From UHGV virus genome UHGV-0175150: 21,403 bases of DNA. The stretch is one strand, 5' to 3'. The position numbers were made by a program, and so were the translations under genes. The notes beneath the pieces are model-generated. The model saw only the letters and a program-made list of their open reading frames with translations. It made no database searches and was not told the DNA's origin. Shown here piece after piece: positions 5,103 to 15,111 of this stretch; position 1 is the stretch's first letter; each line of letters starts with the position of its first letter. The stretch is from a virus.

Positions 5103-5600
5103 TTAAGCCGGTACGCCGCCGGCGGTACGCCAGACGGTGACCAGTTTTTCCAGTGAATGCTCACGCTGACCGTAACCGGCACCCGGCAGGGACGCCCAGA
5201 TATTGCGACAGCGTGAAATGGCGCGCTCAATGCGTCCCGCCCGGATGTCATCCAGTGCACCGCGTTCGCGGATCAACTGAATGGCGAGCCTGTCCTGTGA
5301 CAACGGACTGAAATCCGGCAGGGCAAGCTGTTTGCGGTAATGCGGCCAGAACAGGTAAAGCTGCTGATAGCGACCGGAAGCCGTGGATTTTTCACCGCGA
5401 CGGTTAAACACCTTCGCCGGTCGGCCATGCGCGAACGGGTGGTCACTGTAGTCGGTGAATATTTCCGGCTTCCCGTCCAGTCCGGTGACTATCACGTCAT
5501 AGCCACGGTTTTTCGTCAGCGGATGATTCGCCGTCCCTTCGGATACCGCCAGCATGTCGAGAAAGGCGGCGATATTCTGATGCGTGTTAATTACCGGCAT
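5103..5600 (-). CDS. K: Endolysin gpK (lysozyme-like murein hydrolase)
   Basis: 165-aa ORF, same length as P2 gpK; start overlaps the Y stop by 1 nt. Confidence 0.9.
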   Translation of the reverse strand: MPVINTHQNIAAFLDMLAVSEGTANHPLTKNRGYDVIVTGLDGKPEIFTDYSDHPFAHGRPAKVFNRRGEKSTASGRYQQLYLFWPHYRKQLALPDFSPLSQDRLAIQLIRERGALDDIRAGRIERAISRCRNIWASLPGAGYGQREHSLEKLVTVWRTAGGVPA

Positions 5601-5881
5601 TACTGTTTCCCCCTGCCCTTAAAGCGACGCTGAATGGCAATCTCAATCACCTGATAACCGGCGATACCCAGCATGGAGCCGATGCCGCACACCGCAGGCA
5701 GTGACAGGTCAGGAAACTGCACCAGAACAACACCGGCAACCATCGAGACAAAACCACCGAGCAACATGCGTCCGATAAACAGACGCGGGGTGATGGGTTC
5801 ACCACCGGCAAGCACCTTGCCGACAACAATCAGCACCCCAATCATGAAAAGCGACAGGACGCTTTTTTCTTCTGCTGTCAT
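5600..5881 (-). CDS. Y: Holin gpY
   Basis: 93-aa ORF with hydrophobic TM segments; MTAEEKSVLSLFMIGVLIVVGK... matches the remembered P2 holin Y. Confidence 0.9.
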   Translation of the reverse strand: MTAEEKSVLSLFMIGVLIVVGKVLAGGEPITPRLFIGRMLLGGFVSMVAGVVLVQFPDLSLPAVCGIGSMLGIAGYQVIEIAIQRRFKGRGKQ

Positions 5882-9603: not shown

Positions 9604-11376
9604 ATGACCATCACCACAGACACCACTCTTTTACACGACCCGCGTCGTCAGGCGGCGCTGCTGTACTGGCAGGGGTTTTCCGTGCCGCAGATTGCCGCCA
9701 TGTTGCAGATGAAACGCCCGACGGTGCAGAGCTGGAAACAGCGCGACGGCTGGGACAGCGTTGCCCCCATCAGCCGTGTCGAAATGAGCCTGGAAGCGCG
9801 GCTGACCCAGCTCATCATCAAACCGCAGAAAACCGGCGGTGACTTCAAGGAAATTGACCTGCTGGGACGCCAGATTGAACGACTGGCACGGGTAAACCGC
9901 TACAGCCAGACCGGCAACGAGGCAGACCTTAATCCGAACGTCGCTAACCGCAACAAAGGCGGGCGTCGCAAACCGAAAAAGAATTTTTTCAGTGACGAAG
10001 CCATCGAAAAGCTGGAGCAGATTTTCTTTGAGCAGTCTTTCGACTATCAGTTGCACTGGTATCGCGCCGGGCTTGAGCACCGCATCCGCGATATCCTGAA
10101 ATCCCGCCAGATTGGCGCGACGTTTTATTTTTCCCGCGAGGCACTGCTGCGCGCCCTGAAAACCGGCCATAACCAGATTTTTCTGTCGGCCAGTAAAACG
10201 CAGGCGTATGTGTTCCGTGAATACATCATCGCCTTTGCCCGGCTGGTTGACGTTGACCTGACCGGTGACCCGATTGTCCTGGGCAATAACGGCGCAAAAC
10301 TGATTTTTCTCGGCACCAACTCCAACACCGCGCAGAGCCATAACGGCGACCTGTACGTCGATGAGATTTTCTGGATCCCGAATTTTCAGGTACTGCGTAA
10401 GGTGGCATCAGGTATGGCCTCACAGAGTCACCTGCGTTCGACCTATTTCTCCACCCCGTCCACGCTGGCGCACGACGCCTACCCGTTCTGGTCAGGTGAA
10501 CTGTTCAACCGGGGACGCGCCAGCGCCGCCGAACGCGTGGAAATCGACGTCAGTCATAACGCCCTTGCCGGTGGGCTTCTCTGTGCGGACGGCCAGTGGC
10601 GGCAGATTGTCACCATTGAGGACGCCCTGAAAGGTGGCTGCACGCTGTTCGACATTGAGCAGCTCAAACGTGAAAACAGCGCCGACGATTTTAAAAACCT
10701 GTTCATGTGTGAATTTGTTGACGACAAGGCATCGGTGTTCCCGTTCGAGGAGCTGCAACGCTGCATGGTCGACACGCTGGAAGAATGGGAAGACTATGCG
10801 CCGTTTGCCGCAAATCCGTTCGGCTCCCGCCCGGTATGGATTGGTTACGACCCGTCACACCGTGGCGACAGCGCCGGATGCGTGGTGCTGGCACCGCCGG
10901 TGGTGGCCGGTGGCAAATTCAGAATACTTGAGCGTCACCAGTGGAAAGGCATGGACTTTGCCACTCAGGCTGAATCCATCCGCAAACTCACCGAAAAATA
11001 CAACGTCGAATACATCGGTATTGATGCCACCGGCCTCGGTGTCGGCGTGTTCCAGCTCGTGCGCTCGTTCTATCCCGCCGCGCGCGACATCCGCTACACG
11101 CCGGAAATGAAAACCGCAATGGTGCTCAAGGCAAAAGACGTCATCCGCCGTGGCTGTCTGGAATATGACGTCAGCGCCACCGACATCACCAGCTCGTTTA
11201 TGGCTATCCGCAAGACCATGACCAGCAGCGGACGCAGCGCCACCTATGAGGCCAGCCGCAGCGAGGAAGCCAGCCACGCCGACCTCGCCTGGGCGACCAT
11301 GCACGCCCTGTTAAATGAGCCACTCACCGCCGGTATCAGCACCCCGCTGACATCCACCATTCTGGAGTTTTACTGA
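9604..11376 (+). CDS. P: Terminase large (ATPase) subunit gpP
   Basis: ATG at 9604 preceded by GAGG; 590 aa beginning MTITTDTTLLHDPRRQAALLYWQGF..., matching remembered P2 gpP in sequence and length. Confidence 0.92.
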   Translation: MTITTDTTLLHDPRRQAALLYWQGFSVPQIAAMLQMKRPTVQSWKQRDGWDSVAPISRVEMSLEARLTQLIIKPQKTGGDFKEIDLLGRQIERLARVNRYSQTGNEADLNPNVANRNKGGRRKPKKNFFSDEAIEKLEQIFFEQSFDYQLHWYRAGLEHRIRDILKSRQIGATFYFSREALLRALKTGHNQIFLSASKTQAYVFREYIIAFARLVDVDLTGDPIVLGNNGAKLIFLGTNSNTAQSHNGDLYVDEIFWIPNFQVLRKVASGMASQSHLRSTYFSTPSTLAHDAYPFWSGELFNRGRASAAERVEIDVSHNALAGGLLCADGQWRQIVTIEDALKGGCTLFDIEQLKRENSADDFKNLFMCEFVDDKASVFPFEELQRCMVDTLEEWEDYAPFAANPFGSRPVWIGYDPSHRGDSAGCVVLAPPVVAGGKFRILERHQWKGMDFATQAESIRKLTEKYNVEYIGIDATGLGVGVFQLVRSFYPAARDIRYTPEMKTAMVLKAKDVIRRGCLEYDVSATDITSSFMAIRKTMTSSGRSATYEASRSEEASHADLAWATMHALLNEPLTAGISTPLTSTILEFY

Positions 11377-12410
11377 TGAGCAAGAAAAAAGGGAAAACAC
11401 CGCAACCTGCGGCAAAAAAAATGACCGCCAGCGCCCCGAAAATGGAGGCATTCACCTTTGGTGAGCCGGTGCCGGTACTCGACCGCCGTGACATTCTGGA
11501 TTACGTCGAGTGCATCAGTAACGGCAGATGGTATGAGCCGCCGGTCAGCTTTACCGGTCTGGCGAAAAGCCTGCGTGCTGCCGTGCATCACAGCTCGCCG
11601 ATTTACGTCAAACGCAATATTCTGGCCTCGACATTTATCCCGCATCCGTGGCTTTCCCAGCAGGATTTCAGCCGCTTTGTGCTGGATTTTCTGGTGTTCG
11701 GTAATGCGTTTCTGGAAAAGCGTTACAGCACCACCGGTAAGGTCATCAGACTGGAAACCTCACCGGCAAAATATACCCGCCGTGGTGTGGAAGAGGATGT
11801 TTACTGGTGGGTGCCGTCCTTCAACGAACCGACAGCCTTCACGCCCGGTTCCGTGTTTCACCTGCTGGAGCCGGATATTAATCAGGAGCTGTACGGCCTG
11901 CCGGAATATCTCAGCGCCCTTAACTCTGCCTGGCTGAATGAGTCGGCCACGCTGTTCCGCCGCAAGTATTACGAAAACGGCGCACATGCCGGATACATCA
12001 TGTACGTTACCGATGCCGTGCAGGATCGCAACGATATCGAAATGCTTCGCGAAAACATGGTGAAGTCGAAAGGCCGCAACAACTTTAAAAACCTGTTTCT
12101 CTATGCCCCACAGGGGAAAGCCGACGGCATTAAAATTATCCCGCTCAGTGAAGTGGCGACGAAGGACGATTTTTTTAATATCAAAAAAGCCAGCGCCGCT
12201 GACCTGCTGGACGCACACCGCATCCCCTTTCAGTTGATGGGCGGCAAGCCGGAGAACGTCGGGTCGCTGGGTGATATTGAGAAAGTGGCAAAGGTCTTTG
12301 TCCGCAATGAGCTTATCCCGTTACAGGACAGGATTCGGGAAATAAACGGCTGGCTCGGTCAGGAGGTCATCCGCTTTAAAAACTACTCACTGGACACTGA
12401 CAACGGCTGA
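11376..12410 (+). CDS. Q: Portal protein gpQ
   Basis: 344-aa ORF, same length as P2 gpQ; start overlaps the P stop (TGATG). Confidence 0.92.
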   Translation: MSKKKGKTPQPAAKKMTASAPKMEAFTFGEPVPVLDRRDILDYVECISNGRWYEPPVSFTGLAKSLRAAVHHSSPIYVKRNILASTFIPHPWLSQQDFSRFVLDFLVFGNAFLEKRYSTTGKVIRLETSPAKYTRRGVEEDVYWWVPSFNEPTAFTPGSVFHLLEPDINQELYGLPEYLSALNSAWLNESATLFRRKYYENGAHAGYIMYVTDAVQDRNDIEMLRENMVKSKGRNNFKNLFLYAPQGKADGIKIIPLSEVATKDDFFNIKKASAADLLDAHRIPFQLMGGKPENVGSLGDIEKVAKVFVRNELIPLQDRIREINGWLGQEVIRFKNYSLDTDNG

Positions 12411-12415
12411 ACATC

Positions 12416-12437
12416 GCCGCCTGCGGGCGGCCTTTTT
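12416..12437 (+). terminator. Rho-independent terminator after Q
   Basis: GCCGCC-TGCG-GGCGGC perfect 6-bp stem with 4-nt loop, followed by CTTTTTA, 6 nt after the Q stop. Confidence 0.5.
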
Positions 12438-12578
12438 ACACTCTGTCATCACGCCCTCACACGCTCATCACCGCACAAAAAATCCCGCAGACACACCAAC
12501 CCCCAACGGGCAGACTAAACGCCGTCACGACGCGCTCAGACGCTGAAAAAATAAAATCAGCACCACCGCCAGCGCGCA

Positions 12579-12597
12579 GTGCTTTCCCCGCCTCGCC
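12579..12597. other. cos site (19-nt cohesive end of P2-like phages)
   Basis: GTGCTTTCCCCGCCTCGCC is the reverse complement of GGCGAGGCGGGGAAAGCAC, which I recall as the P2 cohesive end; it lies immediately beyond Q, where cos sits in P2. Confidence 0.55.
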
Positions 12598-12720
12598 CGC
12601 CCGCTTCATGGGGCGGTTTTAATGCAGTTGCACGAACACGCCAGAGGCACACCATCACTGGCAGCGATCAAACACAACAGGGGAGGGATGCGCATGCAAT
12701 TTGATGCTTGTTAATGCGTT

Positions 12721-13383
12721 TTAAAAGTCCATCTCTTTACCATGCATTTCCTTATAATTCTTCCGTATTTCCATTTGCTTTTTATAGCTAATTTTCATAA
12801 TTTCCAAAAGCTCTTTAGGCATCCTTAATTTGTATTGTTTCATTGATGTTTTAACCACAAAGAAACCACTACGAAAACTTGGATTACCATTCTCACTTAA
12901 GCTTTTATAGAACCTCATATTTCCCAGCTTTGCAAAAGGATAGAAGGCAAACTCCCATTTCTCTCCTACTTGGTATAAAGAATACGGCATTTCCTTCCCA
13001 TTTGCTTTTAGTTTGTTTATGTTAAAATGATTATTTACCCCACTAACTTCTAAGCAAAACTCTTGTATATGTACCGGAACGTTCCGCAAATTTACAACCT
13101 CAATATTGGCACAATAATTTTCTTTGTCTACGCTAGGGTAAGGCTTATAGGTTAAACTTAATTTTTCAACATTATTTTGTGATGCTTGGTATGTCGCATA
13201 CAATGAAATAATCACTGCGACTGACGTTGCAATTCCTGAGACCCATCCTCCGATCATTGCTAAATAAGCAACAGCATCTTTATGCTCTGGTTTCGCCCAT
13301 TCAGCCTGAATAGAGCCTAACCATAAACCGAAAGCAAACATACAAATACCAACCAATAAAAAAGAAATTATTTTCCAAAGCAT
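12721..13383 (-). CDS. Hypothetical membrane-anchored protein (two N-terminal TM helices plus ~150-aa soluble domain); AT-rich cargo gene
   Basis: 220-aa ORF with ATG at 13381..13383 and GAGG 8 nt upstream; TM1 about residues 4-23, TM2 about 41-62; composition visibly more AT-rich than the flanking phage genes; no recognisable motif. Confidence 0.7.
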   Translation of the reverse strand: MLWKIISFLLVGICMFAFGLWLGSIQAEWAKPEHKDAVAYLAMIGGWVSGIATSVAVIISLYATYQASQNNVEKLSLTYKPYPSVDKENYCANIEVVNLRNVPVHIQEFCLEVSGVNNHFNINKLKANGKEMPYSLYQVGEKWEFAFYPFAKLGNMRFYKSLSENGNPSFRSGFFVVKTSMKQYKLRMPKELLEIMKISYKKQMEIRKNYKEMHGKEMDF

Positions 13384-13408
13384 TTTATCTGCCTCAAATG
13401 ATTTTAAT

Positions 13409-13477
13409 CTAACGCCTCACGATGCTCTTTGTTTAACCCCGCCAGCACTGAAAACAAGTTTCAGTACTGGCGGCGTT
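13409..13477. repeat. Copy A of a ~69-bp repeat containing an imperfect stem-loop (13435..13477)
   Basis: CTAACGCCTC...CGCCAGCACTGAAA-ACAAG-TTTCAGTACTGGCGGCGTT; about 85% identical to copy B at 14382..14450; lies between the two cargo genes. Confidence 0.7.
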
Positions 13478-13491
13478 TGTCACTATATTGT

Positions 13492-14223
13492 TTAATTGTC
13501 GAGTATCGAATCGACCTCACCCGTTCGCACGTTGACGCGCGCCGCTACGGTCTGCTTTACCACTCCACCATAAGCATTAGTGCCGCGAAACGTGGTTTTC
13601 ACAATAGCGTGCGGGTCTTTATTCAAAACCAAATGATATACCGTTGATACATGTTTATAAGATGAATCATCGTTCATATTCTCTTTAATTAGCTTTTCCA
13701 ATGGTCGATAAGAACCATCCCAACCACTAAAATTACTCTGAAATGTATCAAGGTTGATTTTATTGTTTAGTGATTTCGGATCTTTTTCATAATCATTAAA
13801 GCACCACCCAAGAACATCACCGAGTTTCAACTCATCATCTTTGGTAAAAGTATATTCACTCATGCAAGCATAAAATGCATCTGATGCGGTGACTGGCACT
13901 TCCTTAAAATCAATGTAACTATTCACAATATCGTGTCGAGTTTTCTTTGGCTCGTTCCGATATTCCTTGAGTGTTTTTTCACCATATTCGAATGTTTTTT
14001 GGACTTGGTGTTCTGCAACGGTTGATGTTTCAGTTTTAGCAACTGGCTGGCTTTTTTCTGTTGGATAGAGTATTGAACCAATTATGCTCAATACAAAACC
14101 TCCTCCGAGATAAACCGCACTTGCACGTTTGCGGCTTGGCATTCGCACCAGTGATGGTTTGATTAACCCGATGAAAAAAGCAACGAAAAAAGCGAGTGAT
14201 AGAAAAGCGATTACAGTATCCAT
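13492..14223 (-). CDS. Hypothetical membrane-anchored protein (two N-terminal TM helices plus ~190-aa soluble domain); AT-rich cargo gene
   Basis: Start taken at ATG 14221..14223 (MDTVIAFLSLAFFVAFFIGLI...) with AAGGA 5 nt upstream, giving 243 aa; the track ORF begins 8 codons earlier at a GTG. A strongly basic loop (KPSLVRMPSRKRAS) separates the two TM segments. Body is AT-rich but the last ~120 nt are GC-rich. Confidence 0.7.
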   Translation of the reverse strand: MDTVIAFLSLAFFVAFFIGLIKPSLVRMPSRKRASAVYLGGGFVLSIIGSILYPTEKSQPVAKTETSTVAEHQVQKTFEYGEKTLKEYRNEPKKTRHDIVNSYIDFKEVPVTASDAFYACMSEYTFTKDDELKLGDVLGWCFNDYEKDPKSLNNKINLDTFQSNFSGWDGSYRPLEKLIKENMNDDSSYKHVSTVYHLVLNKDPHAIVKTTFRGTNAYGGVVKQTVAARVNVRTGEVDSILDN

Positions 14224-14381
14224 AGCTATCCTTTTTGCATCATCCACATAAAAAATCGACCTTATGTTAGCAACAGGAAGCTTACTTTTGAATATTTGTA
14301 AGTTGTTAGCTTTAGCTCTCCGAGCTAACTCCTTTCAACCGTCAAAAAACAGCACCAACTCAGTAAAAATATGAATGTCAA

Positions 14382-14450
14382 CTAACGCCTCGCTTCGCTC
14401 GTTGTTCAACGCCGCCAGCCCTGAAAACAAGTTTCACGACTGGCGGCGTT
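14382..14450. repeat. Copy B of the ~69-bp stem-loop repeat
   Basis: CTAACGCCTC...AACGCCGCCAG (perfect 11-bp arm) ...ACAAG... CTGGCGGCGTT; ends 3 nt from the stop of the small ORF at 14453. Confidence 0.7.
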
Positions 14451-14452
14451 CT

Positions 14453-14659
14453 CTATCGTCTGCGTGGTGGTGACGTAACTCTGGATTGACCGATATGGTT
14501 AAACCGCCCGTAATTATCCCGGACTATTTCGGCACACCCGACCAGCTCATCGGGCGTCAGATTTTCGTTGACCATAATCCGCTGTAAACGCTGAACAATA
14601 GCCATCAGCTTGATATTTTTAGTTTTATGGTGCGGTATCTCGCCTGGTATTCTGTGCAT
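14453..14659 (-). CDS. Small hypothetical protein (68 aa), translationally coupled to the upstream ASCH/HExxH gene
   Basis: ATG at 14657..14659 shares 1 nt with the TAA stop of the upstream gene; product MHRIPGEIPHHKTKNIKLMAIVQRL...; no recognisable motif; could be a non-coding overlap. Confidence 0.4.
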   Translation of the reverse strand: MHRIPGEIPHHKTKNIKLMAIVQRLQRIMVNENLTPDELVGCAEIVRDNYGRFNHIGQSRVTSPPRRR

Positions 14660-15111
14660 TATCCAAGCCACCCGTTTTGCTGTGCACGCTCCATCTGTTC
14701 ATCTGAATAGTTCCATGCTCCATCCGTGGCAACCATTGCCCCGCCAGACATCCCCGTCTCTGGTTCATACATAACAGCAAGGCCGAGCTGATGCATAATT
14801 TCATGATTAATTCTGAATACCAGGCCACGCTCACTAAGTTCTTTCCAGTTCACAATCTCATATGCACCTGTATTAAACAGCTCAATACTTAGCAAGACAT
14901 AATCTTCCAGCCAGTCTGACAGGTCAGTAACATCTGTTATCCGGGCTTCAACCTTTCGCCCCGTATACACACCCTGCACCCATTCATGCAAAATCAACGT
15001 GTCCCCGCGCTCATAATTACGGTCATTTTTCCGAAACTCTGCGCGTTTTTTTCCTTCCAGAACAAGGTCAAAATATTTTGCGTGCAGCTTTACCTCGTGA
15101 ATTTTTGCCAT
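14659..15111 (-). CDS. ASCH/DUF3850-like domain protein with a C-terminal HExxH (HEIMH) motif; unknown function
   Basis: ATG at 15109..15111 shares 1 nt with the gpA stop; 150 aa. N-terminal MAKIHEVKLHAKYFDLVLEGKKRAEFRKNDRNYERGDTLILHEW has the signature pattern of DUF3850/ASCH-fold proteins (from memory). C-terminal part has FRINHEIMHQLGLAVMYEPE. Confidence 0.75.
   Translation of the reverse strand: MAKIHEVKLHAKYFDLVLEGKKRAEFRKNDRNYERGDTLILHEWVQGVYTGRKVEARITDVTDLSDWLEDYVLLSIELFNTGAYEIVNWKELSERGLVFRINHEIMHQLGLAVMYEPETGMSGGAMVATDGAWNYSDEQMERAQQNGWLG

Follow-up and report, generated by a model that had tools for sequence, protein, structure and literature searches.

A small membrane protein in the cos-proximal hotspot of P2-like prophages: a swappable single-gene cassette with a possible role in phage-phage conflict

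What does a small membrane protein do that a P2-like prophage encodes directly beside its cos site, and does it act alone or together with the second membrane protein that is encoded next to it? The question is raised by one gene, here called the target, in a stretch of 21,403 nucleotides from the virus genome UHGV-0175150, which as a whole is referred to as the window. A 2.1-kb query over the target locus is 100% identical to a P2-like prophage adjoining pflA in E. coli SCAID URN1-2021 (NZ_CP082824), where the same CDS is annotated in RefSeq as the hypothetical protein WP_175091281.1. Rightward, the window carries the genes of the large terminase (9604-11376) and the portal (11376-12410), and leftward the order after cos is the target, an Orf97-like gene, the gene of a DUF3850/ASCH protein, and that of the replication protein gpA. 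The elements that frame the target are the following.

12721..13383, minus strand: target CDS, 220 aa, stop included (ORF list and RefSeq CDS, phrog_16957, dN/dS, GC content)
13492..14223, minus strand: Orf97-like neighbour, homologue of phage 186 Orf97, 243 aa, two transmembrane (TM) segments and a probably periplasmic domain (homology)
12579..12597, no strand: cos cohesive-end sequence, reverse complement of GGCGAGGCGGGGAAAGCAC (sequence)
12560..12575, minus strand: hairpin resembling a terminator, its T-run on the gene strand, within the conserved backbone near cos (consensus scan)

The string at 12579..12597, which we take to be the 19-nt cos end of P2, lies 124 nt from the stop codon of the target, and the cos-proximal clones that Rousset 2022 gives for P2 and P4 contain GGCGAGGCGGGGAAAGCAC as well. 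The interval between gpA and cos is the site of old and tin in P2 and a hotspot of anti-phage and other accessory genes; several cassettes of this hotspot have been validated as defences, and it carries non-defence cargo as well, namely partition systems and the cytolethal distending toxin (Rousset 2022, PMC9122126). A sequence-only reading of the window had assigned the target to the position of P2 old, and this assignment is correct, as the slot between portal/cos and gpA is the old/tin site. The GC content of the target is 34.5%, as compared to 53-57% in the backbone genes (terminase, portal, gpA). The terminator-like hairpin sequence is kept downstream of all cassette types and likely forms the 3' end of the target transcript. 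All P2-type loci that were examined have an annotation for a hypothetical ORF of 68 aa, which in the window is at 14453-14659 (minus strand), with the DUF3850 gene on one side and the upstream repeat copy on the other. In E. coli NZ_CP182374, one of the four genomes with a close copy of the target (81% DNA identity), an IS3-family transposase is annotated within the locus.

The borders of the target cassette are marked by a repeat, and the short intergenic region upstream of the gene holds further candidate signals.

13392..13395, minus strand: ribosome-binding site GAGG, 8 nt upstream of the ATG (sequence; conserved in the closest homologous loci)
13398..13477, minus strand: repeat copy A, an element of 80 nt that contains a hairpin of 17 bp, between the Orf97-like stop and the target start, at the left edge of the variable slot (repeat search)
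14371..14450, minus strand: repeat copy B, a second copy of this element, in front of the Orf97-like gene (repeat search)
13482..13509, minus strand: weak site of sigma-70 type (TCGATA-16-TATAGT) that overlaps with the end of the Orf97-like gene (consensus scan, 9/12)

The target was thus rightly said to have a ribosome-binding site of its own and to be preceded by repeat copy A. Copies A and B are 83% identical over their 80 nt, and the 22-nt core of the repeat was found in none of 100 shuffles. Of the 22 loci that were searched, 20 have the element at junctions between cassettes. In all P2-type loci there is a copy in front of Orf97; another stands behind Orf97 in phage 186 and in most of the loci that have a family member, and a third stands behind an unrelated cassette in a single locus (L016). 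Compensatory changes affect 5 of the 17 pairs of the hairpin among 15 distinct copies. The hairpin has no T-run, and a search of the region 12300-14800 gave no Rfam match; its identification with the terminator t95b of phage 186 was rejected, as in 186 the element precedes t95b and has no T-run. The target cassette starts right after the 3' end of the element (GAGGCGTTAG) and ends before the conserved cos-backbone motif TGCATG...TTTGCATGC. It may be speculated that the element is a recombination handle for cassette swapping, or else a stabilizing stem-loop at the 5' end of an mRNA. The sigma-70-like site scored not above shuffle expectation; loci that have a family gene downstream share its TATAGT, which phage 186 lacks. 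The site could be a dedicated promoter of the target, with a transcript that would start at the hairpin. A search for LexA boxes gave only matches at chance level and none near the genes, and thus no indication of an SOS control like that of phage 186.

Counted from the first in-frame start codon, the protein has 220 residues, as had been proposed and as the RefSeq CDS agrees, and the two N-terminal TM helices that had been recognized in the sequence are recovered by hydropathy (mean Kyte-Doolittle values of 2.30 and 1.75 for the two segments) as well as in an AlphaFold (AF2) model. This model, calculated with 22 homologues, has a mean pLDDT of 81 and shows helices at residues 2-28 and 32-70, the strands of a beta-sandwich between residues 75 and 187 together with one short helix, and a C-terminal helix at residues 190-214. 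It suggests the following division of the gene.

13174..13383, minus strand: two-helix membrane hairpin, codons 1-70 (AF2 helices, conservation, dN/dS, charge distribution)
12820..13173, minus strand: predicted Ig-like beta-sandwich domain, codons 71-188, variable across the family (AF2 model)
12721..12819, minus strand: predicted lysine-rich amphipathic C-terminal helix, codons 189-220 and stop (AF2 helix 190-214, hydrophobic moment 0.95, dN/dS)

The description of the soluble part as lysine-rich was accurate (19 K and 5 R in residues 71-220, pI 9.4) but incomplete, as this part is predicted to fold as a beta-sandwich followed by a C-terminal helix. Over 57 family members, the N-terminal tails contain 80 K/R and 13 D/E, whereas the Trp-rich loops between the two helices contain 77 K/R and 130 D/E. 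By the positive-inside rule, this charge bias indicates that both termini are cytoplasmic and that the loop is periplasmic, so that an N-in/C-in topology with a cytoplasmic beta-sandwich and an acidic periplasmic loop appears probable. There is no conserved cysteine in the soluble domain across the aligned family members. Ig-like sandwiches are more often extracytoplasmic, and for this reason the cytoplasmic placement of the domain could be wrong. Taken together, the target is a real inner-membrane protein, and it is predicted to be built from a membrane hairpin, a beta-sandwich of Ig-like type and, at its C-terminus, a helix rich in lysine.

The target matches PHROG 16957, a family of unknown function, with an E-value of 1.4e-70 over residues 1-207 of 220. 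A word-index search yielded 22 relatives, and 48 family members were obtained when 1.84 billion cluster representatives were searched exhaustively with HMMER, 18 of them below 1e-30, nearly all of which have 190-230 aa and align end to end. A scan of GTDB representative genomes gave only one relative, and the genomic context was therefore studied in E. coli genomes, in contigs of viruses and by looking up exact proteins. Full-length homologues are found in many contigs; at the DNA level, the target is found in 4 of 5426 complete E. coli genomes. A relative in phage S164 is 31% identical (E 9e-23; tblastn to the S164/P24A7b variants E 9e-23 to 3e-35) and is the same variant as system 30 of Rousset 2022, the sequences being near-identical, not identical. 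The system-30 sequence in Table S5B of that study carries the TM2 motif of the target type, and the table lists system 30 with 119 loci and the sole annotation '2 TM'; the relative is not in the tables of cloned systems of the same study. The family has thus been catalogued before, as a hotspot gene with two TMs and no name, and the target allele is a rare, divergent branch of the system 30 family. Neither Pfam, NCBIfam nor PADLOC searches gave a significant match for the target, a sequence-profile search of the PDB gave chance matches only, the PLSDB plasmids contained no match to the family, and the family motif was not found in the text-form supplements of DefensePredictor and of a 2026 preprint on P2/P4 hotspots. 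The homology searches that the sequence-only reading had suggested thus brought up no homologue of known function, with relatives limited to the PHROG 16957/system 30 family.

Identity in the soluble domain goes down to 16-25% within the family while the architecture persists. In 41 diverse members, only G45, W47 and A56 are invariant, all of them in helix 2 of the hairpin, and F16, G19, G23, M43, V57 and L61 of the hairpin are near-invariant, as are E73 and G140. The motifs of the hairpin are G19xxxG23 in helix 1 and M43-x-G45-x-W47...A56-V57...L61 in helix 2, with a face of small residues. As these positions cluster in the hairpin, the conserved core of the family is the membrane hairpin. 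Selection was assessed by pairwise Nei-Gojobori dN/dS with eight full-length homologues of 220 codons, using pairs with dS>=0.04. The whole gene gave values of 0.24-0.47, about 0.3, the hairpin 0.03-0.25, the beta domain about 0.2-0.3, and the C-terminal helix, which is the least constrained part of the protein, 0.35-0.9. The idea of diversifying or positive selection on the soluble domain found no support in dN/dS. The gene is under purifying selection and functional, and it had been considered earlier that it might be a pseudogene fragment in related prophages, which is contradicted by dN/dS and by homologues that are full-length from start to stop.

How such a gene is exchanged can be seen at the locus. 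Alleles that are only 72-76% identical (dS 0.5-1.5) reside in backbones in which gpA and portal are 98-99% identical, and this indicates allele replacement by recombination rather than fast local evolution. Between the target and the alleles of L011 and L022, dS is 0.38 in the 5' third that codes for the hairpin and 1.34 in the part that codes for the beta domain; the uneven distribution suggests a recombination breakpoint within the gene, with the conserved 5' end as a shared flank. The family is restricted to prophages, where its sites also include prophage ends, the head module of a siphovirus and P2-like hotspots that lack Orf97, and none of its members is on plasmids. The target is a swappable single-gene accessory ('moron') cassette in the P2-like cos-proximal hotspot. 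In three loci, family members adjoin AbiL, ApeA-HEPN and NsnA/PD-T4-2-like genes. The earlier idea of a defence function is plausible in view of the hotspot context, the adjoining defence genes, and a GenBank note on Orf97, according to which Orf97 of phage 186 blocks 186 infection when expressed from a plasmid.

Several observations concern other occupants of the slot. In the viral contig L007 (5865-7542), two extra genes lie between a 95%-identical copy of the target and cos, one for a nucleotidyltransferase-like protein and one for a GmrSD_N protein that matches PADLOC NsnA (E 3e-40) and PD-T4-2_A, which indicates that the slot can stack cassettes. Other E. coli prophages can have unrelated proteins of 198-429 aa between Orf97 and cos (L016 3315-3911, L018 3392-4066, L019 3345-4634, L020 3344-4126, L021 3263-3994), and these five further hotspot cassettes had no significant Pfam or PADLOC match. 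The Pfam, NCBIfam and PADLOC searches covered, besides the target, eight other variable-slot proteins in all, and gave nothing significant. Three distant family members (P0048 in L023, P0055 in L025/L026, P0046 in L032) have umuC/umuD-like or imuB-like genes of translesion polymerases only a few genes away, and this neighbourhood may be shared mobile-element cargo.

The Orf97-like neighbour is the most obvious candidate for a partner. The mechanical ORF of this gene starts with GTG at 14247 (251 aa); RefSeq, phage 186 and all homologues start with the ATG at 14223 (243 aa). That the target is not obviously related to the neighbouring membrane protein, as had been stated before, is confirmed by BLASTP (E 0.18) and hhalign (probability 1.2%), and sequence and profile comparisons with the Orf97 family (PHROG 3403) showed no similarity. 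Orf97 has a strongly positive loop (KPSLVRMPSRKRAS), invariant Cys120 and Cys141, and an HdeA-like helical subdomain, and the soluble domain of Orf97 would be periplasmic, in a topology opposite to that of the target. A search for Orf97-like genes gave 158 matches, the gene being far more conserved and widespread than the target family. Among 5426 complete E. coli genomes, 88 have it, and at least 46 of these also have a member of the target family, as counted with four family variants (4 + 29 + 7 + 6 genomes). Of the first 14 loci that carry a family member, 13 have an Orf97-like gene about 110 nt upstream and in the same orientation, and all E. coli and phage loci that were checked place the family member immediately behind Orf97 and in its orientation.

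In the co-occurrence analysis that had been proposed as a check, the two genes nevertheless proved not to be obligate partners. Phage 186 has Orf97 without a family member, with only a terminator after orf97, and five E. coli loci have Orf97 followed by unrelated proteins in place of the target family. Conversely, the family occurs without Orf97 in seven loci, which are Enterobacteriaceae bacterium G50, a Kosakonia 186-like prophage in which the family member adjoins an ApeA-HEPN gene, a P2-like hotspot in which it is the sole called gene between conserved early genes and the portal side, two P2-like prophage ends, a marine chromosomal site, and the head module of a siphovirus-like prophage. 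Orf97 is 77-97% identical between loci while the downstream family member is 25-95% identical, so that there is no co-variation. Rousset 2022 lists the Orf97-like and the target-type genes as separate systems, 12 and 30. The target is independent of any fixed partner gene, and the favoured reading is an independent cassette in the variable slot between Orf97 and cos. Of the two options that had been offered for the two genes, independently acquired cassettes stand, and a two-component system does not agree with Orf97 alone in 186 and the family without Orf97 in seven loci. A looser functional link between the two may still exist.

On the basis of its anatomy, the hotspot context and the analogy to the S-2TMbeta proteins described below, the target can tentatively be proposed to be a stand-alone membrane protein, encoded by a cos-proximal hotspot cassette, whose most likely field of action is phage-phage conflict, by exclusion or abortive infection, although our confidence in this proposal stays clearly below an even chance. 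The conserved two-helix hairpin with its packing faces of small residues would self-associate and perturb the membrane, the cytoplasmic, allele-variable Ig-like beta-sandwich would recognize a cue from the infecting phage and control the association of the hairpins, and the infected cell would be arrested or killed, as in abortive infection. Both the oligomerization of the hairpin and the entire anti-phage role are presumed in this scheme. Two-TM effectors normally need a partner sensor or signal synthase, and no such gene is conserved beside the target family, which counts against the proposal, as do the lack of diversifying selection on the soluble domain by dN/dS, the non-defence cargo of the hotspot, the absence of the system 30 relative from the systems cloned by Rousset 2022, and the absence of the family from PADLOC and from the text-form supplements of DefensePredictor. 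A bolder version, which we consider unlikely, would be a single-polypeptide device in which the Ig-like domain recognizes a phage protein and the glycine-zipper hairpin forms a lethal pore, with no need for a nucleotide or a partner, and in which the allelic variants of the beta-sandwich set the phage specificity. As a further variation, such a device might cooperate with the periplasm-facing Orf97 as a two-sided gate at the inner membrane.

Instead of killing the cell, the protein could act at the entry step, as a superinfection exclusion factor without cell death whose hairpin and short periplasmic loop would block the passage of phage DNA through the inner membrane. Interference with entry at the inner membrane is known from T4 Imm, P22 SieA and HK97 gp15, and SieA-type exclusion by prophage inner-membrane proteins has been documented (PMC10883804). 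The target is likewise a prophage-borne small inner-membrane protein whose most conserved parts are the hairpin and the Trp-rich acidic loop, and it directly follows Orf97, the 186 homologue of which blocks 186 infection. However, about 150 of its 220 residues form the predicted cytoplasmic domain that is not obviously needed for an entry block, and there is no sequence match to exclusion families in Pfam or PHROGs, including those of T4 Imm, P22 SieA/SieB and HK97 gp15. Entry exclusion is judged to be rather improbable.

It is also rather unlikely that the target is an accessory membrane protein outside of defence, with a role in host envelope physiology, virulence or the timing of prophage lysis. 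Non-defence cargo is known in the hotspot, three distant family members adjoin umuDC-like genes and not defence genes, and the two TMs in an N-in/C-in arrangement with glycine motifs recall class II holins. A lysis function does not fit well with the prophage having its own lysis cassette and with the target being twice the typical size of holins, and the limitation of the family to prophages, with none on plasmids, and its co-residence with defence genes speak against a non-defence role in general.

The target and Orf97 acting together in exclusion, as a membrane module of a cytoplasm-facing and a periplasm-facing component, must be regarded as quite improbable. Such a module would agree with the adjacent, same-strand arrangement at a distance of about 110 nt that was seen also in the E. 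coli cross-checks and with the complementary predicted topologies, in which the Orf97 loop KPSLVRMPSRKRAS is positive and the target loop acidic. The loci with only one of the two genes, the missing co-variation and the separate counting of systems 12 and 30 in Rousset 2022 argue for independent genes. That inserted AT-rich DNA simply holds an ORF that is decaying or without function can, finally, practically be dismissed, as the AT-richness, the lack of an annotated function and the rarity in complete E. coli genomes stand against a gene that is full-length in all relatives with a dN/dS of about 0.3 and near-absolute TM conservation, against a confident AF2 model, and against a family that reaches about 20% identity with the same architecture.

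The family is of relevance beyond this prophage. The Orf97-like genes (system 12) and the two-TM family (system 30) are two of the thirty most common cassettes of a hotspot from which several validated defences are known. If the family is a defence, it would be among the smallest self-sufficient membrane effectors, combining a conserved killing or blocking module with an exchangeable recognition domain, and this layout would be easy to dissect in a single gene of about 660 bp. Should it have no part in defence, the family would serve as a useful counter-example to annotation by 'guilt by hotspot'.

[quoted passage not shown] They have no sequence similarity to the target, and Old and Tin are soluble proteins, whereas 70 of the 220 residues of the target are in the membrane hairpin. 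As had been noted from the sequence, the target has none of the ATPase or nuclease motifs of Old: no such family was detected in Pfam, NCBIfam or PADLOC, an ABC-type ATPase domain being absent even at E<=1, and there is no C-terminal TOPRIM domain, with a predicted beta-sandwich in the soluble part. Orf97 of phage 186 is similar in its size, its two TMs, its AT-richness and its hotspot, and its homologue adjoins the target on the same strand, but it is not homologous to the target. Small two-TM proteins that are thought to be cell-killing effectors are found in P2/P4 hotspots also in the AC1 2TM+1TM+TIR system, in P4 Gop and in type IV retrons; these effectors have a partner sensor gene and no beta-sandwich, whereas the target family has no conserved partner. 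An identification of the target pair with AC1 2TM+1TM+TIR was rejected, as the proteins of that system have 125 and 185 aa without a beta-sandwich and need the TIR gene.

Class II holins and pinholins have two TMs, an N-in/C-in topology and glycine-zipper packing motifs. The target has two TMs and the conserved G19xxxG23 and G45/W47, and from its charge bias an N-in/C-in topology would be expected. Size and location differ, as holins have about 70-110 aa and the holin, endolysin and spanin cassette of the prophage is found at 5103-5881, some 7 kb away. True homologues are those of phrog_16957/system 30, catalogue entries without assigned function that match over the full length and share the position between gpA and cos. 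The closest likeness in build, beyond these, is to the S-2TMbeta proteins Cap15 and OptE, in which a two-pass TM element is joined to a beta-rich domain and which kill by disrupting membranes on oligomerization (PMC12657218). The soluble domain of the target has no homology to the Pfam S_2TMBeta nucleotide-binding beta-barrel, and there is no cyclic-nucleotide-making partner (CD-NTase or mCpol) in the window or in the fetched relative loci. The target does have the N-terminal two-pass TM element of the S-2TMbeta type, as seen in the AF2 helices and in hydropathy, and it shares with Cap15 and OptE the size of about 200 aa and a predicted beta-rich domain that begins at about residue 73.
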